This document shows, piece after piece, positions 34,210 through 46,237 of a DNA stretch of 64,000 nucleotides. The stretch's first letter is position 1. Every line of letters begins with the position of its first letter. This stretch comes from an uncultured Candidatus Binatia bacterium (GTDB lineage: Bacteria; Desulfobacterota; Binatia; UBA9968; CAXXLF01), in contig OZ244621.1 in NCBI GenBank assembly GCA_965218425.1, positions 1,600,001 to 1,664,000 of the forward strand. Direction: 5' to 3'. The notes beneath the pieces were generated by a model. That model searched no databases. It was not told the DNA's origin and saw only the letters and a list, made by a program, of their open reading frames with translations. A program made the position numbers and the translations under genes.

Positions 34210-35829
34210 ATGGATTGGCGGAACGAGTGCCTCCAATGCTATAATTTTACAAATGCCTCTAGACGAGTAAAAATTCAGGCCATTCCTACCTTGCAACACG
34301 AGAACCTTAAGAGACGATCCATTTATTATTTGCTTGCGCTATGCTCCGCCATACTGTTAGCAGCGCCGTTTCTTTTTCCCGTTCTGTTTCCAGTAACCTG
34401 GGTATCCCTCATCCCCCTTCTTTGGCTGCTTCAGCGGGTGTCCGTGCGGCAAGCCTTGCTGTTTGGCCTAGGGGTAGGCGGGGTGATGAATCTTTTGGGA
34501 TTTTATTGGCTGAATTACACCATTCGAGTCTTCGGCGGTTTTCCCCACGGTCTAAGTGAGATTATCTGGCTTGGCTTTGCCGTTTACGCGGCCCTACCCG
34601 TGGCTCTCTTCTCCCTGCTCGTTAGATTCTACGGATTGGGTCCACTGGGTCTCTTTCCGGCGCTCTTTTGGGTCACCATTGAATTCTGGTTTCCATTACT
34701 TTTTCCCTGGCACCTGGCCAACAGTCAATCTTACTTCCTAACTCTCATCCAATCCGCCGACCTGATTGGGCCCTACGGCACCAGCTTCGTTCTCGTATGG
34801 GTCAATTCCGTGCTCTATCAAATTGGAGAGGGCGTATTCGTTTCAAAAAGCCGGAAACGGATTCCTGTAACAGAAACGACCATTGTGGGAGCGGTGTTGG
34901 CAGGGTTCCTCGTATACGGCCACGCGAGATTGGCGGCCGTCTCAACGGAAATGGAGGCTGCACCTGCCATCACCGTAGCTGCTGTACAGGGCAATATTAG
35001 TATTCGCACCAAAGGGAACCTTACCTACCTGCAAAGCAACCTGGCCTCTTACAAGGATCTTACCAGCAAAATCCAAGGAGCCCAGTTAGTGGTCTGGCCG
35101 GAATCCGCTGTAGAGGCTTGGGTTCCGCAGAACATGAAGCGGCTCCCACCGCAACTCCCCCTGCCACTTCCTCCTGGTGTCTCATTTTTAATTTTCGGTG
35201 TGAGGAGCCTGGAACGGGATGCGGCCACTTCCAAGACGAAAGTATTCAACAGCGCTTTTCTAGTGGATCGTGAAGGTCAAGTGGTGAGCCGCTATCACAA
35301 ACAGACGCTCCTCGCCTTTGGGGAGTATGTCCCGCTAACGTCAGTACTCTCCCTTCTCCCAGGAATGCCCCCCATTGGCCAGGGATTCAGTCGGGGTGAT
35401 GGCCCGCGCACCCTTGACCTGTCCTCCACCATCCGGTTGGCCCCTCTCATATGCTACGAAGATTTGATGCCGTGGTTATCACGCAGATTTGTGGCCGCAA
35501 GCCATGCCAATCTTCTGGTGAATCTCACCAACGACGGTTGGTTCGGTAACACGGTTGCACCATGGCAACACGCCCGGCTTTCCCAGTGGCGGGCCATCGA
35601 GACCCGTCGGAGCCTGGTGCGGGCCACCAATACCGGCGTGACCACCGTCATCAATCCCAGGGGAGAAATTCTCGAATCCTTGCCGGTGTATTCCACCGGG
35701 GTGTTAAACGTAAAAGTTCCCCTCATGAAGAGCAAAACTTTCTACGTCCGATTTGGCGATTGGTTTACCTGGGTCGCCACAGCGGCGTCACTCAGCATCG
35801 TCATCATACGTCAGCTTTTCCACCACTAA
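34210..35829 (+). CDS. lnt: Apolipoprotein N-acyltransferase (start uncertain)
   Basis: VQGNI, VWPESA, YHK..L..FGEYVP, LICYED, TNDGWFG, RATNTG. Confidence 0.95.
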   Translation: MDWRNECLQCYNFTNASRRVKIQAIPTLQHENLKRRSIYYLLALCSAILLAAPFLFPVLFPVTWVSLIPLLWLLQRVSVRQALLFGLGVGGVMNLLGFYWLNYTIRVFGGFPHGLSEIIWLGFAVYAALPVALFSLLVRFYGLGPLGLFPALFWVTIEFWFPLLFPWHLANSQSYFLTLIQSADLIGPYGTSFVLVWVNSVLYQIGEGVFVSKSRKRIPVTETTIVGAVLAGFLVYGHARLAAVSTEMEAAPAITVAAVQGNISIRTKGNLTYLQSNLASYKDLTSKIQGAQLVVWPESAVEAWVPQNMKRLPPQLPLPLPPGVSFLIFGVRSLERDAATSKTKVFNSAFLVDREGQVVSRYHKQTLLAFGEYVPLTSVLSLLPGMPPIGQGFSRGDGPRTLDLSSTIRLAPLICYEDLMPWLSRRFVAASHANLLVNLTNDGWFGNTVAPWQHARLSQWRAIETRRSLVRATNTGVTTVINPRGEILESLPVYSTGVLNVKVPLMKSKTFYVRFGDWFTWVATAASLSIVIIRQLFHH

Positions 35830-36476
35830 TCCATCTCTTTCTTCACGTTCGTTCTGCGAGCCGACTTCTGTTTTCTCGTTACAAGAACAGTCCACCTGTC
35901 CGGCCACGCCACGACCATTCGATACCCGAGTAGAATCGTGAGGATGCTGCCATATATCAAGGGTTCCCGTTGGTCCGCCTTTACCAACCAGATGTAATGG
36001 ATCACTCCTCCTATGGCGGCCAGATAGACCAGACGGTGCAATTGCTGCCAGCGACGCCCGCCGAGCCTTCGAATCATCCCGCTGGTGGAGGTAAGCGCCA
36101 AAGGGACGAGGAGTAAAAAGCTGACAAATCCCACGGTGATAAAGGGACGCTTCATTACGTCCCCCACCATTTCCGTAAACTCAAAAAATTGATCCAGCCA
36201 GACGTAGGTGGTGACATGCAGGCAGACGTGAAAGAACGCGAACAGGCCCAGCATCCGCCTGAGCCGTATAAGCCAGTGGAGACCCGTTAGTCTACGCAGC
36301 GGCGTCACGCTGAGTACGATCAAAAGAAACACCAAGGTCCATGTTCCCGTTGACCGTGTAATGACCTCAACAGGATTGGCACCCAGGTTATTGGTATAAG
36401 TATTCCAACCCAGGCGGACCATGGGAACAAGGCAGAGCAAGAAAACCGCCACCTTGATTGGGGTCACATAATTCAC
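35826..36476 (-). CDS. msrQ: Methionine sulfoxide reductase heme-binding subunit
   Basis: GANPVE, RRMLGLFAF, PLALTS, WQQLHRLVY. Confidence 0.95.
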   Translation of the reverse strand: MNYVTPIKVAVFLLCLVPMVRLGWNTYTNNLGANPVEVITRSTGTWTLVFLLIVLSVTPLRRLTGLHWLIRLRRMLGLFAFFHVCLHVTTYVWLDQFFEFTEMVGDVMKRPFITVGFVSFLLLVPLALTSTSGMIRRLGGRRWQQLHRLVYLAAIGGVIHYIWLVKADQREPLIYGSILTILLGYRMVVAWPDRWTVLVTRKQKSARRTNVKKEMD

Positions 36477-36496
36477 AGTTGTGCTTTGAAGGTGGA

Positions 36497-37459
36497 CTAA
36501 TAGTACGCTGTCAGATCCATGCCTTGATACAAAGACGCCACCTGATCCGCATACTCATTGAACATGAGAGTCTTACGCTTGCGAAATTCACCGATACGGC
36601 GCTCCCGTGCTTGACTCCAGCGGGGATGATCCACGTTAGGATTTACATTGGAATAAAAGCCATACTCCCTGGGCGCCGCCTTTTCCCACGAAGTCATGGG
36701 TTGCTTCTCCACAAAACGAATTCGCACAATAGACTTGATGCTCTTGAATCCGTACTTCCAGGGAACCACTAAACGGATGGGCGCCCCGTTCTGGTTGGGA
36801 AGAACCTGGCCGTATAGGCCGATGGCAAAGATGGTCAACGGGTGCATGGCCTCATCCAATCGGAGCCCCTCCACATAGGGCCAATCCAGGACCCTCCTTT
36901 TCTGACCCGGCATCTGTTCAGGGTCATGGAGAGTCGTGAATTCCACATACTTGGCTTTAGAGGTTGGTTCTACCTTTTTGATCAACGCGTTCAGCGGGAA
37001 ACCCACCCACGGGATCACCATGGACCAACCCTCCACGCAGCGCAACCGGTAGATGCGTTCTTGCAGTGGACTCATTTTCATCAGCTCATCGATGTCATAT
37101 TCCTTCTCCCGCCTGACCTCCCCCTCCACCACCACGGTCCAGGGACGGGTCACGAGTCTTTTTGCCTGTTTCGCGGGAGAATATTTATCGGTACCGAATT
37201 CATAGAAGTTATTATAGCTGGTGATGTCCTTGTATGGTGTCTTTAGTTCATCTGTGCTGAATGGGCTCTTTTGCGCCCCTTGGAGCTTCACGCCGCCGAC
37301 CCCTTTTTCGGACTGCACACCCACCGCGGGGAGAACCAATCCAGCGCCCACTGCCACCGCGGTCACGGAGGCGCCCATTAGGAATTGACGGCGATTGAGA
37401 TAGACCTTCTTATCGGTAATCTCGCTTCCCTTGATATCGCTAGGCTTTTTAATCAACAT
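36497..37459 (-). CDS. msrP: Methionine sulfoxide reductase catalytic molybdo-subunit
   Basis: Tat motif [38 protein letters not shown]. Confidence 0.97.
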
Positions 37460-37497
37460 AGTCTCCCCTTTCAATGGCTCTCATTTCAGTCCGCTTC

Positions 37498-38052
37498 CTA
37501 GTTTTCATCTAGCAGATGACGAATCAACGACTCCGTCTCGCGGTATCCTCCTTCACCAAATCTGGTGTGACGGACAATTCCTTTCTTATCAATCACATGT
37601 AACGTCGGCCAGTAGCGTGTCCCATAACGGTTCCAGGTGGCGAAATCGTTGTCGATGGCCACGGGATACTTAATCCCGAGTTGGGCACTGGCTGCTTGCA
37701 CTTTCTCCCGAGGCTTTTCCCAGAAAAATTCCGGCGAGTGAATACCTATGACCACTAGCCCCTGAGAACCGAAACGCTCATACCAATCCGCCAACCTGGG
37801 GATCGTACGTTTGCAATTGATTCAGCCATAGGTCCAAAACTGCAAAAGGACCACCTTGCCGCGAAGATCCGCCATCTTCAGTGCTGGAGAGTTAATCCAA
37901 ACTTTGTTTCGGATCTCCGGAGCGGGCTGACCGATCAACCTCGCTTCGGCATCAAGTTTTGCAAAATGGAGACTCAGTAAAATAAACAAAACTACTGCAA
38001 ATCGCATGCTATGTGTCTTCATCCCGCTTACCTCCATTGAACCGTGTTTCAT
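37498..38052 (-). CDS. Exported thioredoxin-like (DipZ/TlpA-type) selenoprotein, UxxC
   Basis: ORFs 37822-38052 and 37498-37794 share a frame; read-through gives FWTYG-U-INCKRTIP...GIHSPEF...YWPT; hairpin at 37805-37784. Confidence 0.85.
37784..37805 (-). promoter_or_regulatory. Candidate bacterial SECIS hairpin
   Basis: CGAUCC-CCA-GGU-UGG-C-GGAUUG begins 16 nt after the UGA; G-led apical loop. Confidence 0.6.
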
Positions 38053-38813
38053 TGCTTGTCCTTAAGAGCGGGCCAGTTTTTATTGGCCTTAACCATATAA
38101 TCGGGAATATCCTTTTCCCATATTCTCGCCACCCCCGGACTCAAGTTGAGATAGAGCTTGCCATCGATGATTTCCCAAGCTGTCGGGTCAATGTCCGCGG
38201 TGATTCCCTGGCTTACCGCGGAGTCCATGGGACGAACCTTATTGCGCAGTGCCGCCTGCAGCATCCGCCGTGCCCCGCAGACCCTGGAGCGGAACCTGCT
38301 GATGGAACATTCCATTACCCGGGCGCCGTCGCGGTAACTCAGCTCTTCGATGTCCACCAGGATGAGCGCCAAGCGGTGCGCCTCAGGGAGCATTTTGACA
38401 GCCTTCTCCACCTCCCCCTGGCTGCATTGTGAGACGGATAGATTGTGGATGGATCCACCGTTTTGCTGTGGAGGATCCCAATCAATAGTTGCCTGAACAC
38501 CCACTCTTTTCCGATAGCGGCGGTTGAAGATTCTTCGCAAGATGCACAGGAGCCACACCCGGGCGTTGGTATCCGCATTATAAGAACTGAAACGTCCGTG
38601 GGCCTGTAGGTAGGTTTCTTGAACCAAGCCTTCCGCCATCTCACTGTCCTGTGCGAGGTAAACAGCACAGGTATAGAGCCAGGGGAGCTGGGAGAGGCTC
38701 GCCGCCTCAAACTCTGCCCCGGTTACCTTTTTCCCCTGATCCCCAATAAACGGCCATAGTCGTTCTTTGTAGATCACAGCACAGGCCCATCTCATCGATT
38801 TAAGATCTCCCAT
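38049..38813 (-). CDS. Degenerate ECF sigma factor fused to the C-terminal half of a YHS-domain (seleno)protein; possibly a pseudogene
   Basis: Sigma2 (AEGLVQETYLQA..WLLCIL) and sigma4 (LVDIEELSY), then AVSQGITADIDPTAWEIIDGKLYLN...ANKNWPAL. Confidence 0.7.
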   Translation of the reverse strand: MGDLKSMRWACAVIYKERLWPFIGDQGKKVTGAEFEAASLSQLPWLYTCAVYLAQDSEMAEGLVQETYLQAHGRFSSYNADTNARVWLLCILRRIFNRRYRKRVGVQATIDWDPPQQNGGSIHNLSVSQCSQGEVEKAVKMLPEAHRLALILVDIEELSYRDGARVMECSISRFRSRVCGARRMLQAALRNKVRPMDSAVSQGITADIDPTAWEIIDGKLYLNLSPGVARIWEKDIPDYMVKANKNWPALKDKQ

Positions 38814-38856
38814 TTCATTCGAAAGTCGGCCTTGAATTTCACGCTTACATGTCCAG

Positions 38857-38911
38857 ATTATAAAAGAAGGAGATAAAGAACCAATAAAGCGATTGTAAAG
38901 ATACGGTAAAG
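38857..38911 (-). promoter_or_regulatory. OmpR/PhoB-type activated promoter: four 11-bp-periodic boxes plus a TATAAT -10
   Basis: TAAAG at 38874, 38885, 38896 and 38907 (CTTTA on the minus strand); TATAAT at 38862-38857. Confidence 0.7.
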
Positions 38912-38933
38912 ATCGAGGACCTGGGGGAAGGGG

Positions 38934-39998
38934 CTAAAGGGGGACGGTAAACCCTATGCGGGTCTCGGCCAGAGAACTTTCGGCACTCACCTGGCCACCA
39001 TGGGCTTCCACCAACTCCTTAACGATGGCAAGGCCTATACCGGCCCCACCATGTTGACGGGAACGAGACTTTTCGCCTCGGTAGAAACGTTCGAAGACAA
39101 ACGGAAGATCCTCATTGGTGATACCTTCTCCAGTATTGGCGAAGACCCACTTGACGGAAGCCGTGGACCTTTCGGCATAGATCCTGACCTTGCCGCCTGA
39201 GGGGGTGTACTGCCAGGCGTTGTGTAGGAGGTTCCTGAAAACCTGCGCAAGTTTTTCGGGGTCCACGAGCACCTCATAGTTTCCATCAGGAAAAATTTTC
39301 TCAATTTGAATTCCTTTTTCCGCAAACTTGTGCCGGAAGAGTTCCAGGCTGCGTGACCCCATCTCCAGTAGATCCGTTGGCTTTCGTCTCAGGCTTCCCC
39401 TGGATCCCTCCGCATGGGCCAGTTGGAGGAGATCTTCTACCAGTTGGGCCAACCGGACGGTTTCCTCCTGGAGGGACTCCATGGTTTCTTTCGAGGGTGC
39501 CACCACTCCATCGCTCAATGCCTCTAGATATCCCCGGATGTTTGTCAGAGGGGTGCGTAGCTCATGGGCCACATCGATTACCATAGTCTTCCTCAGTTGC
39601 TCGATCCTCTGGAGACTTTCGGCCATTTGATTGAAGGCGGAGGCCAACTGACCGGTCTCGTCGTTGGAAGAGATCCGGACACGGGCGGAATAATCCCCCG
39701 AGGCGATTTTCCTCGTAATCCCTGTCATTTGAGAAAGGGGATTCAATACCTTTCGGGTCAGAAGAAAGCTTAGGAACACCGCAAGGGCCAGGGTAGCAAG
39801 GCTCGCCCATATGAGGGAACGATGGGTGGCTTCCAGAAACATCCTGTGAACGGAGGACGGAGAGATGTTGTACTCATCCATCAACGTCATGAAATAATCC
39901 GAGGCTAGATAGTCGATGGCAAGCCAAACGATGAGAATGACCACGCCGATGACGAGGATGTTGATCCCCAAAAGTTTCCAGAGAAGGCGGCTTTTCAT
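38934..39998 (-). CDS. Sensor histidine kinase (HAMP, BaeS-like)
   Basis: Two TMs, HAMP, DVAHELRTPLT, NLLHNA, GAGIGLAI. Confidence 0.95.
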   Translation of the reverse strand: MKSRLLWKLLGINILVIGVVILIVWLAIDYLASDYFMTLMDEYNISPSSVHRMFLEATHRSLIWASLATLALAVFLSFLLTRKVLNPLSQMTGITRKIASGDYSARVRISSNDETGQLASAFNQMAESLQRIEQLRKTMVIDVAHELRTPLTNIRGYLEALSDGVVAPSKETMESLQEETVRLAQLVEDLLQLAHAEGSRGSLRRKPTDLLEMGSRSLELFRHKFAEKGIQIEKIFPDGNYEVLVDPEKLAQVFRNLLHNAWQYTPSGGKVRIYAERSTASVKWVFANTGEGITNEDLPFVFERFYRGEKSRSRQHGGAGIGLAIVKELVEAHGGQVSAESSLAETRIGFTVPL

Positions 39999-40005
39999 TT
40001 TCAGT

Positions 40006-40713
40006 CTAATCATCCCACTCGGCTAATTGGTAGCCGATACCCCTCACGGTTAACAGGTATCTAGGTTTTGATATGTCAGGCTCGATCTTCTGCCTGAGCT
40101 TTCCGATGTGAACATCGATGACGCGATCGATGACCGCCTCACCGTGGGGATAGAGGTGATTGAGTAGTTCCTCCCGTGAGAAGACACGCCCTGGAGACTC
40201 CATTAGGATTTGGAGGAGCTTGAACTCGAAACTCGTGAGTGAAATCGGCCGGCCCTTCAGGGTTACTCTCCGCTTTTCAGGATCCAGGGCAAGCCCCCCT
40301 TGAGACCCCAACTCTTTTCCCTGGGACACATCTGGACTCACTCGCCGTAGTATGGCTTTTACCCTGGCTGTCAACTCCCTGGGGCTAAAAGGCTTCACAA
40401 CGTAATCATCGGCGCCCAGGGATAAGCCCAGGACCCGGTCCATCTCTTCTTCCCTGGCTGTGAGAATCAGGATGGGGACATTGGAGGACTGCCTCAGCTC
40501 CTTGCAGATCTCCCACCCATCCACATTCGGAAGCATTAAATCCAGGATCACAAACTTTGGGTGGTGCCGTTTTGCCAGGTCCAGACCCTTGTGGCCATCG
40601 TAGGCCGTGACGGTCTTGAACCCCTCCCTCTCAAGGTAAAGGGCCACCAGGGAGGCCGTCTTTTTATCGTCCTCTACGATCAAAATGGGTCCTGATTTAC
40701 CCGGGCGATCCAT
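40006..40713 (-). CDS. OmpR-family response regulator
   Basis: ILIVEDD, ILDLMLP, KPFSPREL, DVHIGKLRQK, TVRGIGY. Confidence 0.95.
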   Translation of the reverse strand: MDRPGKSGPILIVEDDKKTASLVALYLEREGFKTVTAYDGHKGLDLAKRHHPKFVILDLMLPNVDGWEICKELRQSSNVPILILTAREEEMDRVLGLSLGADDYVVKPFSPRELTARVKAILRRVSPDVSQGKELGSQGGLALDPEKRRVTLKGRPISLTSFEFKLLQILMESPGRVFSREELLNHLYPHGEAVIDRVIDVHIGKLRQKIEPDISKPRYLLTVRGIGYQLAEWDD

Positions 40714-41341
40714 GGTCGATATGAGTGTAGCGGACGGGTGTCGATTATGCACACTCAACCCCAAGGGGGGAAGGCACTTGAATGCCCATTACACTACCCT
40801 ACGGCAAACAGTAGGGAGGGAGTGTTTTTTTAACCACATCCAATTGGGGGAGATGATCGTTACACTATTTTCATTCCTGTTACTTTGGGCTTCGGCAATT
40901 TCCTTCGCTCCCCGGGGAGCGAGCCCCCGGCCGCGCGGGCAACAGGCCAGTGAATATCTGAAGCTGTACCTTCGATGCCCACGGCCTTCCGTCTCACTCC
41001 ACTTCGTCGCTTTTCCGATTTGGAGCCAGAGGGCTTGCACCGAAGAAAGGGAGACGTCCGATACTAGAGGTCAGGCCATACTGGCATGCCAGATCAAATG
41101 ACGGAGCCTCGATGCACAGGCCCACCGGCTCCCGCTGAGGGCAGGCCTCCGAGCCCCAAATCGCATGGGCGAATGAACGTTCCCGCGCCGGGGTAACTGG
41201 AGCGAAGGGATGGCAGCTATTGAAAAAACCAGGCTTAACGCCGGGGAGGATGGGATTAGCACCCCAGGGGACTACACTCTTCGCACTAGAGGCTTTTACG
41301 GCTTGACTTGCGAGAAAGGCCCCACCTAAACTCCAATAGAT

Positions 41342-45060: not shown

Positions 45061-45148
45061 AACCCTCAGACCTCTCCGTCTAATTCCGTAAGGTTACCTA
45101 CCGCTCCTTGGGGAGGCGGCCCGTTTTAATAGAGGACTTATCCACCTA

Positions 45149-46237
45149 TTGAGAACCGCATAATATAGTAACATTGGATAAGAACTAATGTATAGTGGTG
45201 GTATGGGAAACCCACTTGGAGTGCGACGGGACTTTGAAGCATTGGAGCGGCGGCGGATGGAGGTGGGGAGGCTGTTGAAGCGAGGGCTGTCGGAGGCGGA
45301 GGTGGCGCGTTGGGTGGGAGTGCACCGCCAGTCGGTGAATCGATGGGCGCGGCAGTTGGCCGAGAGCGGCAGAGCCGGGCTCAAGCAGGCGGGGCGTGCC
45401 GGACGCAAGCCGCGACTGAGCCCGGCGGATCTGAAGAAGATCGAGGGCGGTTTGAAACGGGGACCCGAAGCGCTGGGGTACGACACGAGCCTGTGGACCG
45501 CAAGGCGAGTGGCCCACTTGATTGGGGAAGCCTGCGGAGTCACATACCATCCGGGCCATGTTTGGCGGATATTGCGGCAGTTGGGGTGGAGTTGCCAGCG
45601 GCCGACGGGACGTGCCTTGGAACGAGATGAAGAGGCGATCCGGCAGTGGAAGAAGAAGCGCTGGCCGGAGATTAAAAAAAAGCCCGAAACGAGGGGCGAA
45701 CCATAGTGTTCGTGGACGAAAGCGGGCTGAGCGAGCGGCCGAATCGGTATCGTACGTGGTCGCCCCGAGGACAGACGCCAGTGCTGCAATATCACTTCAA
45801 CTGGAAGAGTCTGTCGGCCATCGCCGGAGTCACCTGGTGGCGCTTGTACTTTCGAGTGTATCCGGGAGCCATCAAGAGCCCCCAGATCATCGAATTCCTG
45901 AAGCACTTGATGCGTCATGTTTCCGGGCCGCTGCTGGTAGTGTGGGACGGACTGCCCAGCCACCGGAGCCGGTTGGTTCGGGACTTTGTTGCCGCTACCG
46001 AAGGCGCGTTGGTGCTGGAACGGTTGCCGGCCTATGCACCGGAACTGAATCCCGTCGAATACCTCTGGGGATACTGGAAGCATCATGAACTGCCCAACTT
46101 CTGTGCCAAGGACTTCGCTCAACTCAGCCACCATGCTCGTCGCGCCCTTTGCCGAATGCGCCGCAGGCCTCGTCTCGTTACCGCCTTCTGGAAACAGTCC
46201 AGCCTTTTCTGATGTCATTATATTATACGAGGATCAA
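45149..46237 (+). mobile_element. IS630-family insertion sequence
   Basis: IRL TTGAGAACCGCATAATATAGTAACAT vs reverse-complemented IRR TTGATCCTCGTATAATATAATGACAT; TA at 45147-45148 and 46238-46239. Confidence 0.93.
45203..46212 (+). CDS. IS630 transposase (-1 frameshift at the A8 run 45674-45681)
   Basis: HTH OrfA; shifted frame KKARNEGRTIVFVDESG, VWDG, PAYAPELNPVE. Confidence 0.92.

Follow-up and report, generated by a model that had tools for sequence, protein, structure and literature searches.

On the minus strand of the window, the stretch of 64,000 nucleotides of Binatia DNA that we analyzed, positions 38052 to 37498 form a single frame of 184 codons with one internal stop only, a TGA at 37824-37822. 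When this codon is read through, the motif is FWTYG-U77-INC(K), and the TGA takes the place of the first Cys in a CxxC of the DipZ type. Under the standard code, the gene is split into an ORF of 76 amino acids (37822-38052) and an ORF of 98 amino acids (37498-37794). The original prediction had described two fragments in one frame with a TGA at this Cys position, as well as an ATG that overlaps the TGA stop of the upstream gene (ATGA), and we confirmed both in the sequence. It had also expected gene callers to split the gene. We found the two halves deposited as separate proteins in a public collection, which contained 6 of the 8 sequences that we queried. Contigs from three sequencing runs of three studies, two of which may be the source of the window DNA itself, had zero letters differing from the window across 36400-39200 (runs X1 and X2) and 37300-39200 (run X4), the TGA included.

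The gene (37498..38052, minus strand) encodes a DipZ/TlpA-type thioredoxin with U77-I-N-C80 and a proline, P149, at the cis-Pro position, as judged from Pfam, PDB comparison, alignment, and a structural model. The read-through protein scored above the cut-offs of PF00578, PF08534, and PF13905, with AhpC-TSA as its best Pfam match. No NCBIfam model reached its cut-off, those for ResA, StoA, DsbE, TlpA, and WAxxUGC proteins included; the best gave 67.8 bits against 170, and WAxxUGC gave 26.7 against 300. Among solved structures, its closest match is the DipZ thioredoxin domain (PDB 2HYX, E 1.1e-46), followed by SOQ1, YkuV, and NHLRC2, and these homologues carry Cys opposite the U, as an alignment had been expected to show. 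There were also weak matches to 2YP6 (E 2.3e-10), which we take to be Etrx2, and 2H30 (E 1.9e-4), presumably the N-terminal domain of Neisseria PilB. Across 62 Cys homologues, both the Cys at position 77 and P149 are invariant. In an AlphaFold model in which U was entered as C (mean pLDDT, 91.6), an N-terminal helix spans residues 14 to 32, a strand spans 67 to 73, and the active-site helix spans 78 to 97, with the CxxC at the N terminus of that helix and a pLDDT of about 98 in this region. By inspection and hydropathy, approximately residues 1 to 36 (37945..38052, minus strand), which end in AEA, form a predicted cleavable signal peptide. A second possible start is M11, which is preceded by GGAGG. 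Where the 5' end is intact, nearly all TGA loci encode a hydrophobic stretch about 60 residues N-terminal of the U, again by hydropathy and inspection; thus, the signal-peptide-like N terminus first noticed at this locus appears to be a predicted export signal conserved in the family.

The thioredoxin gene is followed 23 nt downstream by the start of msrP, for the catalytic subunit (36497..37474, minus strand; NF003767, 490.6 bits against a cut-off of 207), and then by msrQ, for the heme-binding subunit (35826..36476, minus strand; NF003831, 187.8 bits against a cut-off of 130). The upstream gene (38049..38813, minus strand) encodes an in-frame fusion of an ECF-type sigma factor with the C-terminal third of a YHS protein, and its stop overlaps the thioredoxin ATG. 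At the related locus L042 the order is intact: response regulator, histidine kinase, ECF sigma factor, YHS protein, thioredoxin, msrP, and msrQ. Compared with L042, the genome that carries the window (G000) has undergone a deletion of 399 bp that removed the stop of the sigma factor, the spacer between the two genes, and the initial two-thirds of the YHS gene; the junction, at 38220/38219, is also present in other sequencing runs. Therefore, the YHS protein is likely inactive in G000, and transcription of trx-msrPQ would start further upstream. Possible regulators encoded there, found by profile matches and in the same order in L042, are a HAMP histidine kinase that is BaeS-like below cut-off (38934..40013, minus strand) and an OmpR-type response regulator (40006..40764, minus strand). 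A sigma-70 promoter scan found nothing above chance, and the locus in G000 contains no Met-rich peptide and no anti-sigma gene. Elsewhere in the window, positions 45094-46218 hold two overlapping ORFs, which we take to resemble an IS630-type transposase.

We asked whether the in-frame TGA (37822..37824, minus strand) is read as selenocysteine. G000 encodes tRNA-SeC, selB, selA, and selD, all above cut-off, and selD itself contains a TGA; an absence of Sec machinery, one of the two outcomes that were to speak against the original prediction, was thus not what we found. We then examined 109 homologous loci, a set that includes the best 80 of 132 matches. The site was covered in 107, and after removal of one duplicate and three paralogues, the remaining 103 loci had TGA in 75, TGC or TGT in 28, and no other codon. 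The resolving Cys, C80, is retained in 72 of the 75 TGA copies. Among 40 relatives, we found TGA in 22, TGC in 1, TGA with a frameshift in 1, a remnant in 1, and no match at E 1e-20 in 15. selA is present in 38 of the 40 TGA-bearing genomes tested, the two misses being the genomes that carry L059 and L065, neither with a stated completeness. selA is missing from three Nitrospira genomes with the Cys form and present in seven further Cys carriers. For the part of the gene past the TGA, a comparison of G000 with L042 gave 25 synonymous and 4 nonsynonymous changes (dN/dS, 0.035), and the dN/dS of this part was at most 0.35 in all 9 pairs tested. The upstream value of 0.99 for the pair L019/L030 comes from an ungapped comparison and is probably caused by an indel. 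The second outcome that was to count against Sec, TGC or TGT in relatives with relaxed selection on the downstream half, likewise did not materialize.

The prediction had also placed a hairpin with a CA-GGU-UG top 16 nt downstream of the stop. A bacterial SECIS-like hairpin with the loop GGU is present there (37784..37805, minus strand): it begins 16 nt past the UGA and reaches its loop at 25 nt, its top is CCA-GGU-UGG, and it folds at -10.1 kcal/mol. These values lie within the range described for bSECIS elements, with a loop of 3 to 9 nt that has G in its first two positions, 16 to 37 nt from the UGA, and a minimum free energy of -7.5 or below (PMC13188914, section 5, excerpt). In G000 alone, the stability of the hairpin was not above that of shuffled sequences (z, -0.02 to -1.34), and the loose bSECIS filter is unselective, passing 290 of 776 TGA sites in G000 with a Cys three codons away. 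Thus, the hairpin counts as evidence only because it is conserved across the family. The folding energy is at most -8.1 kcal/mol in all 59 of the distinct TGA contexts (mean, -11.5); among the Cys loci, 5 of 28 fold at -7.5 kcal/mol or below (mean, -4.5). The Leu codon at +10 that forms the loop is TTG in 73 of 75 TGA loci, whereas TTG makes up 15 of 319 Leu codons in the remainder of the gene, although the loci are not independent and kinship among the loci inflates both the hairpin and the codon counts. In a base-pair test across the family, the percentage paired and the covariation exceeded those of shuffles, with no excess of double-change pairs (401/500) or of pair types (487/500). We place little weight on this test because the structure was derived from the same sequences.

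Since the Sec machinery, a site that holds only TGA or Cys codons, the G-loop hairpin, and purifying selection downstream all agree, these sequence comparisons make it almost certain that the window gene is a genuine selenoprotein gene. The operon does decay locally, with the 399-bp deletion upstream, the remnant in G002, and the frameshift in G029; however, the notion that the gene is a pseudogene, its TGA a nonsense mutation or sequencing error, is highly implausible given 75 TGA loci in one clade, TGC or TGT alone at all other loci, the constraint on the hairpin, the identical letters in other runs, and a conserved TGA with purifying selection beyond it, which together exclude a nonsense mutation.

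We placed the Sec forms in a midpoint-rooted tree of 104 rows from a quick IQ-TREE search, in which every row received the same coding at the site. The 75 Sec forms and L062 share one branch (SH-aLRT, 95), beside the stand-alone Cys forms of Nitrospira and of genome G039. A single origin of Sec would be compatible with this tree. L062 (1504-2031, plus strand) is a TGC copy nested among the Sec forms, with the full hairpin kept and in a genome that has selA, and is likely a recent Sec-to-Cys reversion. In three NC10-type copies (L044, L045, and L046, around 5127 / 101), the resolving Cys is replaced by Ser to give UxxS. Each of the three precedes the gene for a small secreted peptide that is rich in Met and Lys and MrpX-like in composition, and at L044 and L045, ccdA is located upstream. 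The remnant in G002 (L038, 799-1731) is a decayed copy with its C-terminal part fused behind an unrelated ORF, and the TGA copy in G029 (L037, ~1323-1830) has its frameshift shortly past the hairpin.

G000 contains six further likely UxxC selenoprotein genes on contig C1, at 3004097(-), 3186166(-), 3707210(-), 2612550(+), 3295591(-), and 4453868(+). From their motifs, we take these to be one Grx-like gene, one DsbA-like gene, two Prx-like genes, and two UGCC-type genes.

We next considered which genes accompany the thioredoxin, counting neighbors by targeted searches in which the loci from the 40-relative search had flanks of 1.5 kb only. Kinship among the loci means that the neighbor counts, too, are not independent. 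The position directly upstream of msrPQ held up and recurs in several lineages: a same-strand msrP or msrQ accompanies the gene at 37 of 75 TGA loci (21 of the 35 whose flanks are long), in Binatia and Rokubacteria-type genomes and usually without ccdA nearby. Four arrangements occur, with msrP/Q as the next gene (17 loci), behind a kinase-regulator pair (14), upstream (5), or behind an insert (1). Near Cys homologues, msrP/Q was found at 0 of 19 long DipZ-like loci and 2 of 10 stand-alone loci. msrP is present somewhere in the genome in all 25 relatives with a thioredoxin match and in 11 of the 15 without, it was not found in the genomes of the three Nitrospira Cys homologues, and in 14 genomes of genus g5 the thioredoxin and msrP genes lie far apart. 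The earlier proposal of a combined repair unit co-expressed with MsrPQ found no support here: the gene is unlinked in g5 and at NC10-type loci, and msrP also occurs without it. Thus, the link to msrPQ, as judged from gene order, is conserved yet nonobligatory.

Other neighbors recur. msrA lies near 13 TGA loci, 12 of them with convergent genes in g5, where the adjoining msrA product has no evident signal peptide. A small gene of the sulfite oxidase family stands beside 11 TGA loci. One Rokubacteria-type subclade (L057, L058, L060, L071, L072, L075, L076, L083, L088, L092, and L094) has a short gene of this family in the place of msrPQ after the kinase-regulator pair; its product there has no evident export signal. 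In 4 NC10-type TGA loci, ccdA is directly upstream, with genes for an ECF sigma factor and a zinc anti-sigma factor. Met-rich ORFs are found beside 12 TGA loci and also beside 7 of 29 Cys loci. Those that adjoin the thioredoxin at L031 (1031-1432), L049 (5479-5748), L054, L085, L098, L106, and L109 bear a signal peptide and have 10 to 17 Met in 50 amino acids, and the three that we scanned matched no Pfam family. The theme of the neighborhood, as read from these genes, is methionine and envelope oxidation, with no fixed partner.

By analogy with known systems, we consider it fairly probable that the protein is a CcdA-fed, predicted periplasmic UxxC disulfide reductase that belongs to a regulon for oxidative repair of the envelope, acts in parallel to MsrPQ, and recycles exported MsrA and MsrB. 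SelB would use the in-frame hairpin to insert Sec, and the signal peptide would be cleaved to leave a soluble periplasmic protein. CcdA would reduce the U77-C80 selenenylsulfide, and the selenolate would in turn reduce oxidized envelope thiols and recycle the exported MsrA and the Tat-type MsrB encoded elsewhere in G000. Shared regulation with msrPQ during oxidant or hypochlorite stress would account for the gene linkage. A CcdA-fed Sec reductase is the simplest reading, the analogues being CcdA-Etrx-MsrAB2 and SOQ1. In Streptococcus pneumoniae, an extracytoplasmic TlpA-type protein is proposed to pass electrons from CcdA to Msr (PMC3914529, excerpt). Etrx and PilB are lipoproteins or fusions of the Cys type, encoded alongside ccdA and msrAB, whereas here the thiol-independent MsrPQ adjoins; unlike in CcdA-Etrx-MsrAB, ccdA, trx, msrA, and msrB are all present in G000 but unlinked. 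The thioredoxin-like domain of Arabidopsis SOQ1 (PDB 7DJJ) is a homologous CINC domain (E 3e-22) located outside the cytosol, from which a methionine sulfoxide reductase domain receives electrons (bioRxiv 2024.11.01.621559, excerpt). The Msr activity of SOQ1 sits in its C-terminal domain, according to the same excerpt, and the window protein lacks that domain.

The genomic data bear on the donor and the substrates of such a reductase. Of 19 long DipZ-like Cys homologues, 15 have ccdA fused to the thioredoxin domain; ccdA is present in 57 of 62 genomes and occurs as one stand-alone copy in G000. It adjoins only 4 of 75 TGA loci, and the CcdA of G000 could instead serve the two other TlpAs of that genome. 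The MsrA of G000 has a signal-peptide-like N terminus, and its MsrB has a twin-arginine motif. Neither TlpA nor ccdA lies within 1.5 kb of any of the 32 MsrA/MsrB loci checked, both G000 genes included. With these queries and by score tier, the exported-type MsrA and the Tat MsrB were not found in some Sec thioredoxin genomes, including G006 (1 contig) and G010. Therefore, exported MsrA and MsrB are not obligatory partners. The UxxS of the three NC10-type copies would fit a plain disulfide reductase less well.

Those UxxS copies, which keep Sec without a resolving Cys, are what a periplasmic peroxidase-like or hypochlorite-quenching enzyme, in which the selenolate itself does the scavenging in place of protein disulfide reduction and is recycled by CcdA or small thiols, would explain. 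AhpC-TSA as the best Pfam match fits such a scavenger too, as do neighbors (ECF sigma, anti-sigma, and Met-rich secreted peptides) that resemble the SigF/MrpX/YedY hypochlorite module (PMC4436054, excerpt). However, C80 is kept in nearly all TGA copies, the nearest solved relatives (DipZ, the SOQ1 thioredoxin domain, YkuV, and ResA) are CxxC disulfide reductases, and there is no peroxiredoxin TxxU motif. We regard this function as unlikely.

A dedicated third component of MsrPQ, drawing electrons from MsrQ or reactivating MsrP or its substrates to let a single membrane donor serve Met and Cys repair, would also fit two observations: msrP/Q recurs in four gene orders beside about half of the TGA loci, mostly where ccdA is not close by, and every relative with a thioredoxin match has msrP. 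Against this stand the retention of msrP in most relatives that lack the gene, its distance from the thioredoxin in g5, the three Nitrospira genomes in which it was not found, and the availability of CcdA in most genomes. In addition, transfer from MsrQ to MsrP is described as heme to Mo, and the word thioredoxin is absent from the accessible text of PMC12525009. The original prediction had held that MsrPQ draws on the quinone pool and not on thioredoxin; the second part agrees with this source, and the first is disputed there, as the electron source is argued to be NADH/Fre rather than quinones. A third component of this kind is thus quite improbable, and we give equally little credence to the more specific proposal that a soil-type clade (Binatia, Rokubacteria, and NC10) recruited Sec once into an exported thioredoxin derived from DipZ and that the low-potential heme of MsrQ recharges the Se-S bond without DsbD or CcdA.

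A CcmG/ResA-like maturation factor that keeps the cysteines of exported cofactor proteins reduced seems more doubtful still. The similarity to the NCBIfam models for ResA, StoA, and DsbE that would favor it is weak and far below cut-off; by sequence inspection, G000 has its own ccmF-ccmG-ccmH-like operon, and no cytochrome c maturation genes are among the annotated neighbors. Separately, we rejected the Sec thioredoxin as an Msr enzyme itself, since the Msr activity of SOQ1 is assigned to another domain (bioRxiv 2024.11.01.621559, excerpt).

How new is a Sec thioredoxin of this type? Mycobacterium tuberculosis DipZ (Rv2874; PDB 2HYX/5CYY) has the same thioredoxin domain and shares the FW-Y-C-I-N-C, H-x-PEF, and RYWP motifs. 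DipZ carries an N-terminal CcdA and a C-terminal Thioredoxin_10 domain in one chain, whereas the window protein has the thioredoxin domain only, stands alone with a predicted signal peptide, has Sec at the first Cys, and is encoded in an msrPQ context. L110 served as the contrast to this stand-alone form in the comparison with the full DipZ architecture. Catalogued UxxC families include a "Prx-like thiol:disulfide oxidoreductase" (PF00578), a "Redoxin family protein" (PF08534), and a "Thiol-disulfide isomerase-like" family (cd02966), with the named representatives WP_010940744.1, HEU0032618.1, and MGB1650493.1 (PMC13188914, excerpt); UxxC proteins of such domains are also catalogued in PMC2398784 and PMC5029168 (excerpts). 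Compared by domain and description only, the window protein shares with these families PF00578 and PF08534 matches above cut-off, UxxC, and an in-frame bSECIS. "DipZ" is absent from the accessible main text of the 2026 review PMC13188914 and of PMC5029168, and the accessible operon section of PMC13188914 lists no msrPQ-linked selenoprotein operon. In the literature searched, a scope outside which BSepDB sequences and Haft and Tolstoy 2025 (PMC12013261) fall, we found no paper on a DipZ-type Sec clade or its link to msrPQ. The SigF/NrsF-MrpX-YedY1 hypochlorite regulon of Azospira suillum (PMC4436054, excerpt) has an ECF sigma factor, Met-rich periplasmic peptides, and msrP (yedY), all of which recur near our homologues; its main text contains none of "thioredoxin," "DipZ," "ccdA," or "YHS." Thus, UxxC redoxins are an already catalogued class of selenoproteins, and the DipZ-type clade is possibly an uncatalogued subfamily of it.

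The finding corrects a systematic annotation error, in which at least 75 loci of abundant uncultured lineages are stored as fragments, and an HMM for the Sec clade would add these loci to selenoproteome catalogues. L070 with TGA and L062 with TGC and an intact hairpin form a natural Sec/Cys pair for testing the contribution of Sec. If the thioredoxin were wired to MsrQ, this would change the view of MsrPQ as independent of thiol chemistry. More broadly, the clade points to the use of selenium in the oxidative repair of the envelope.
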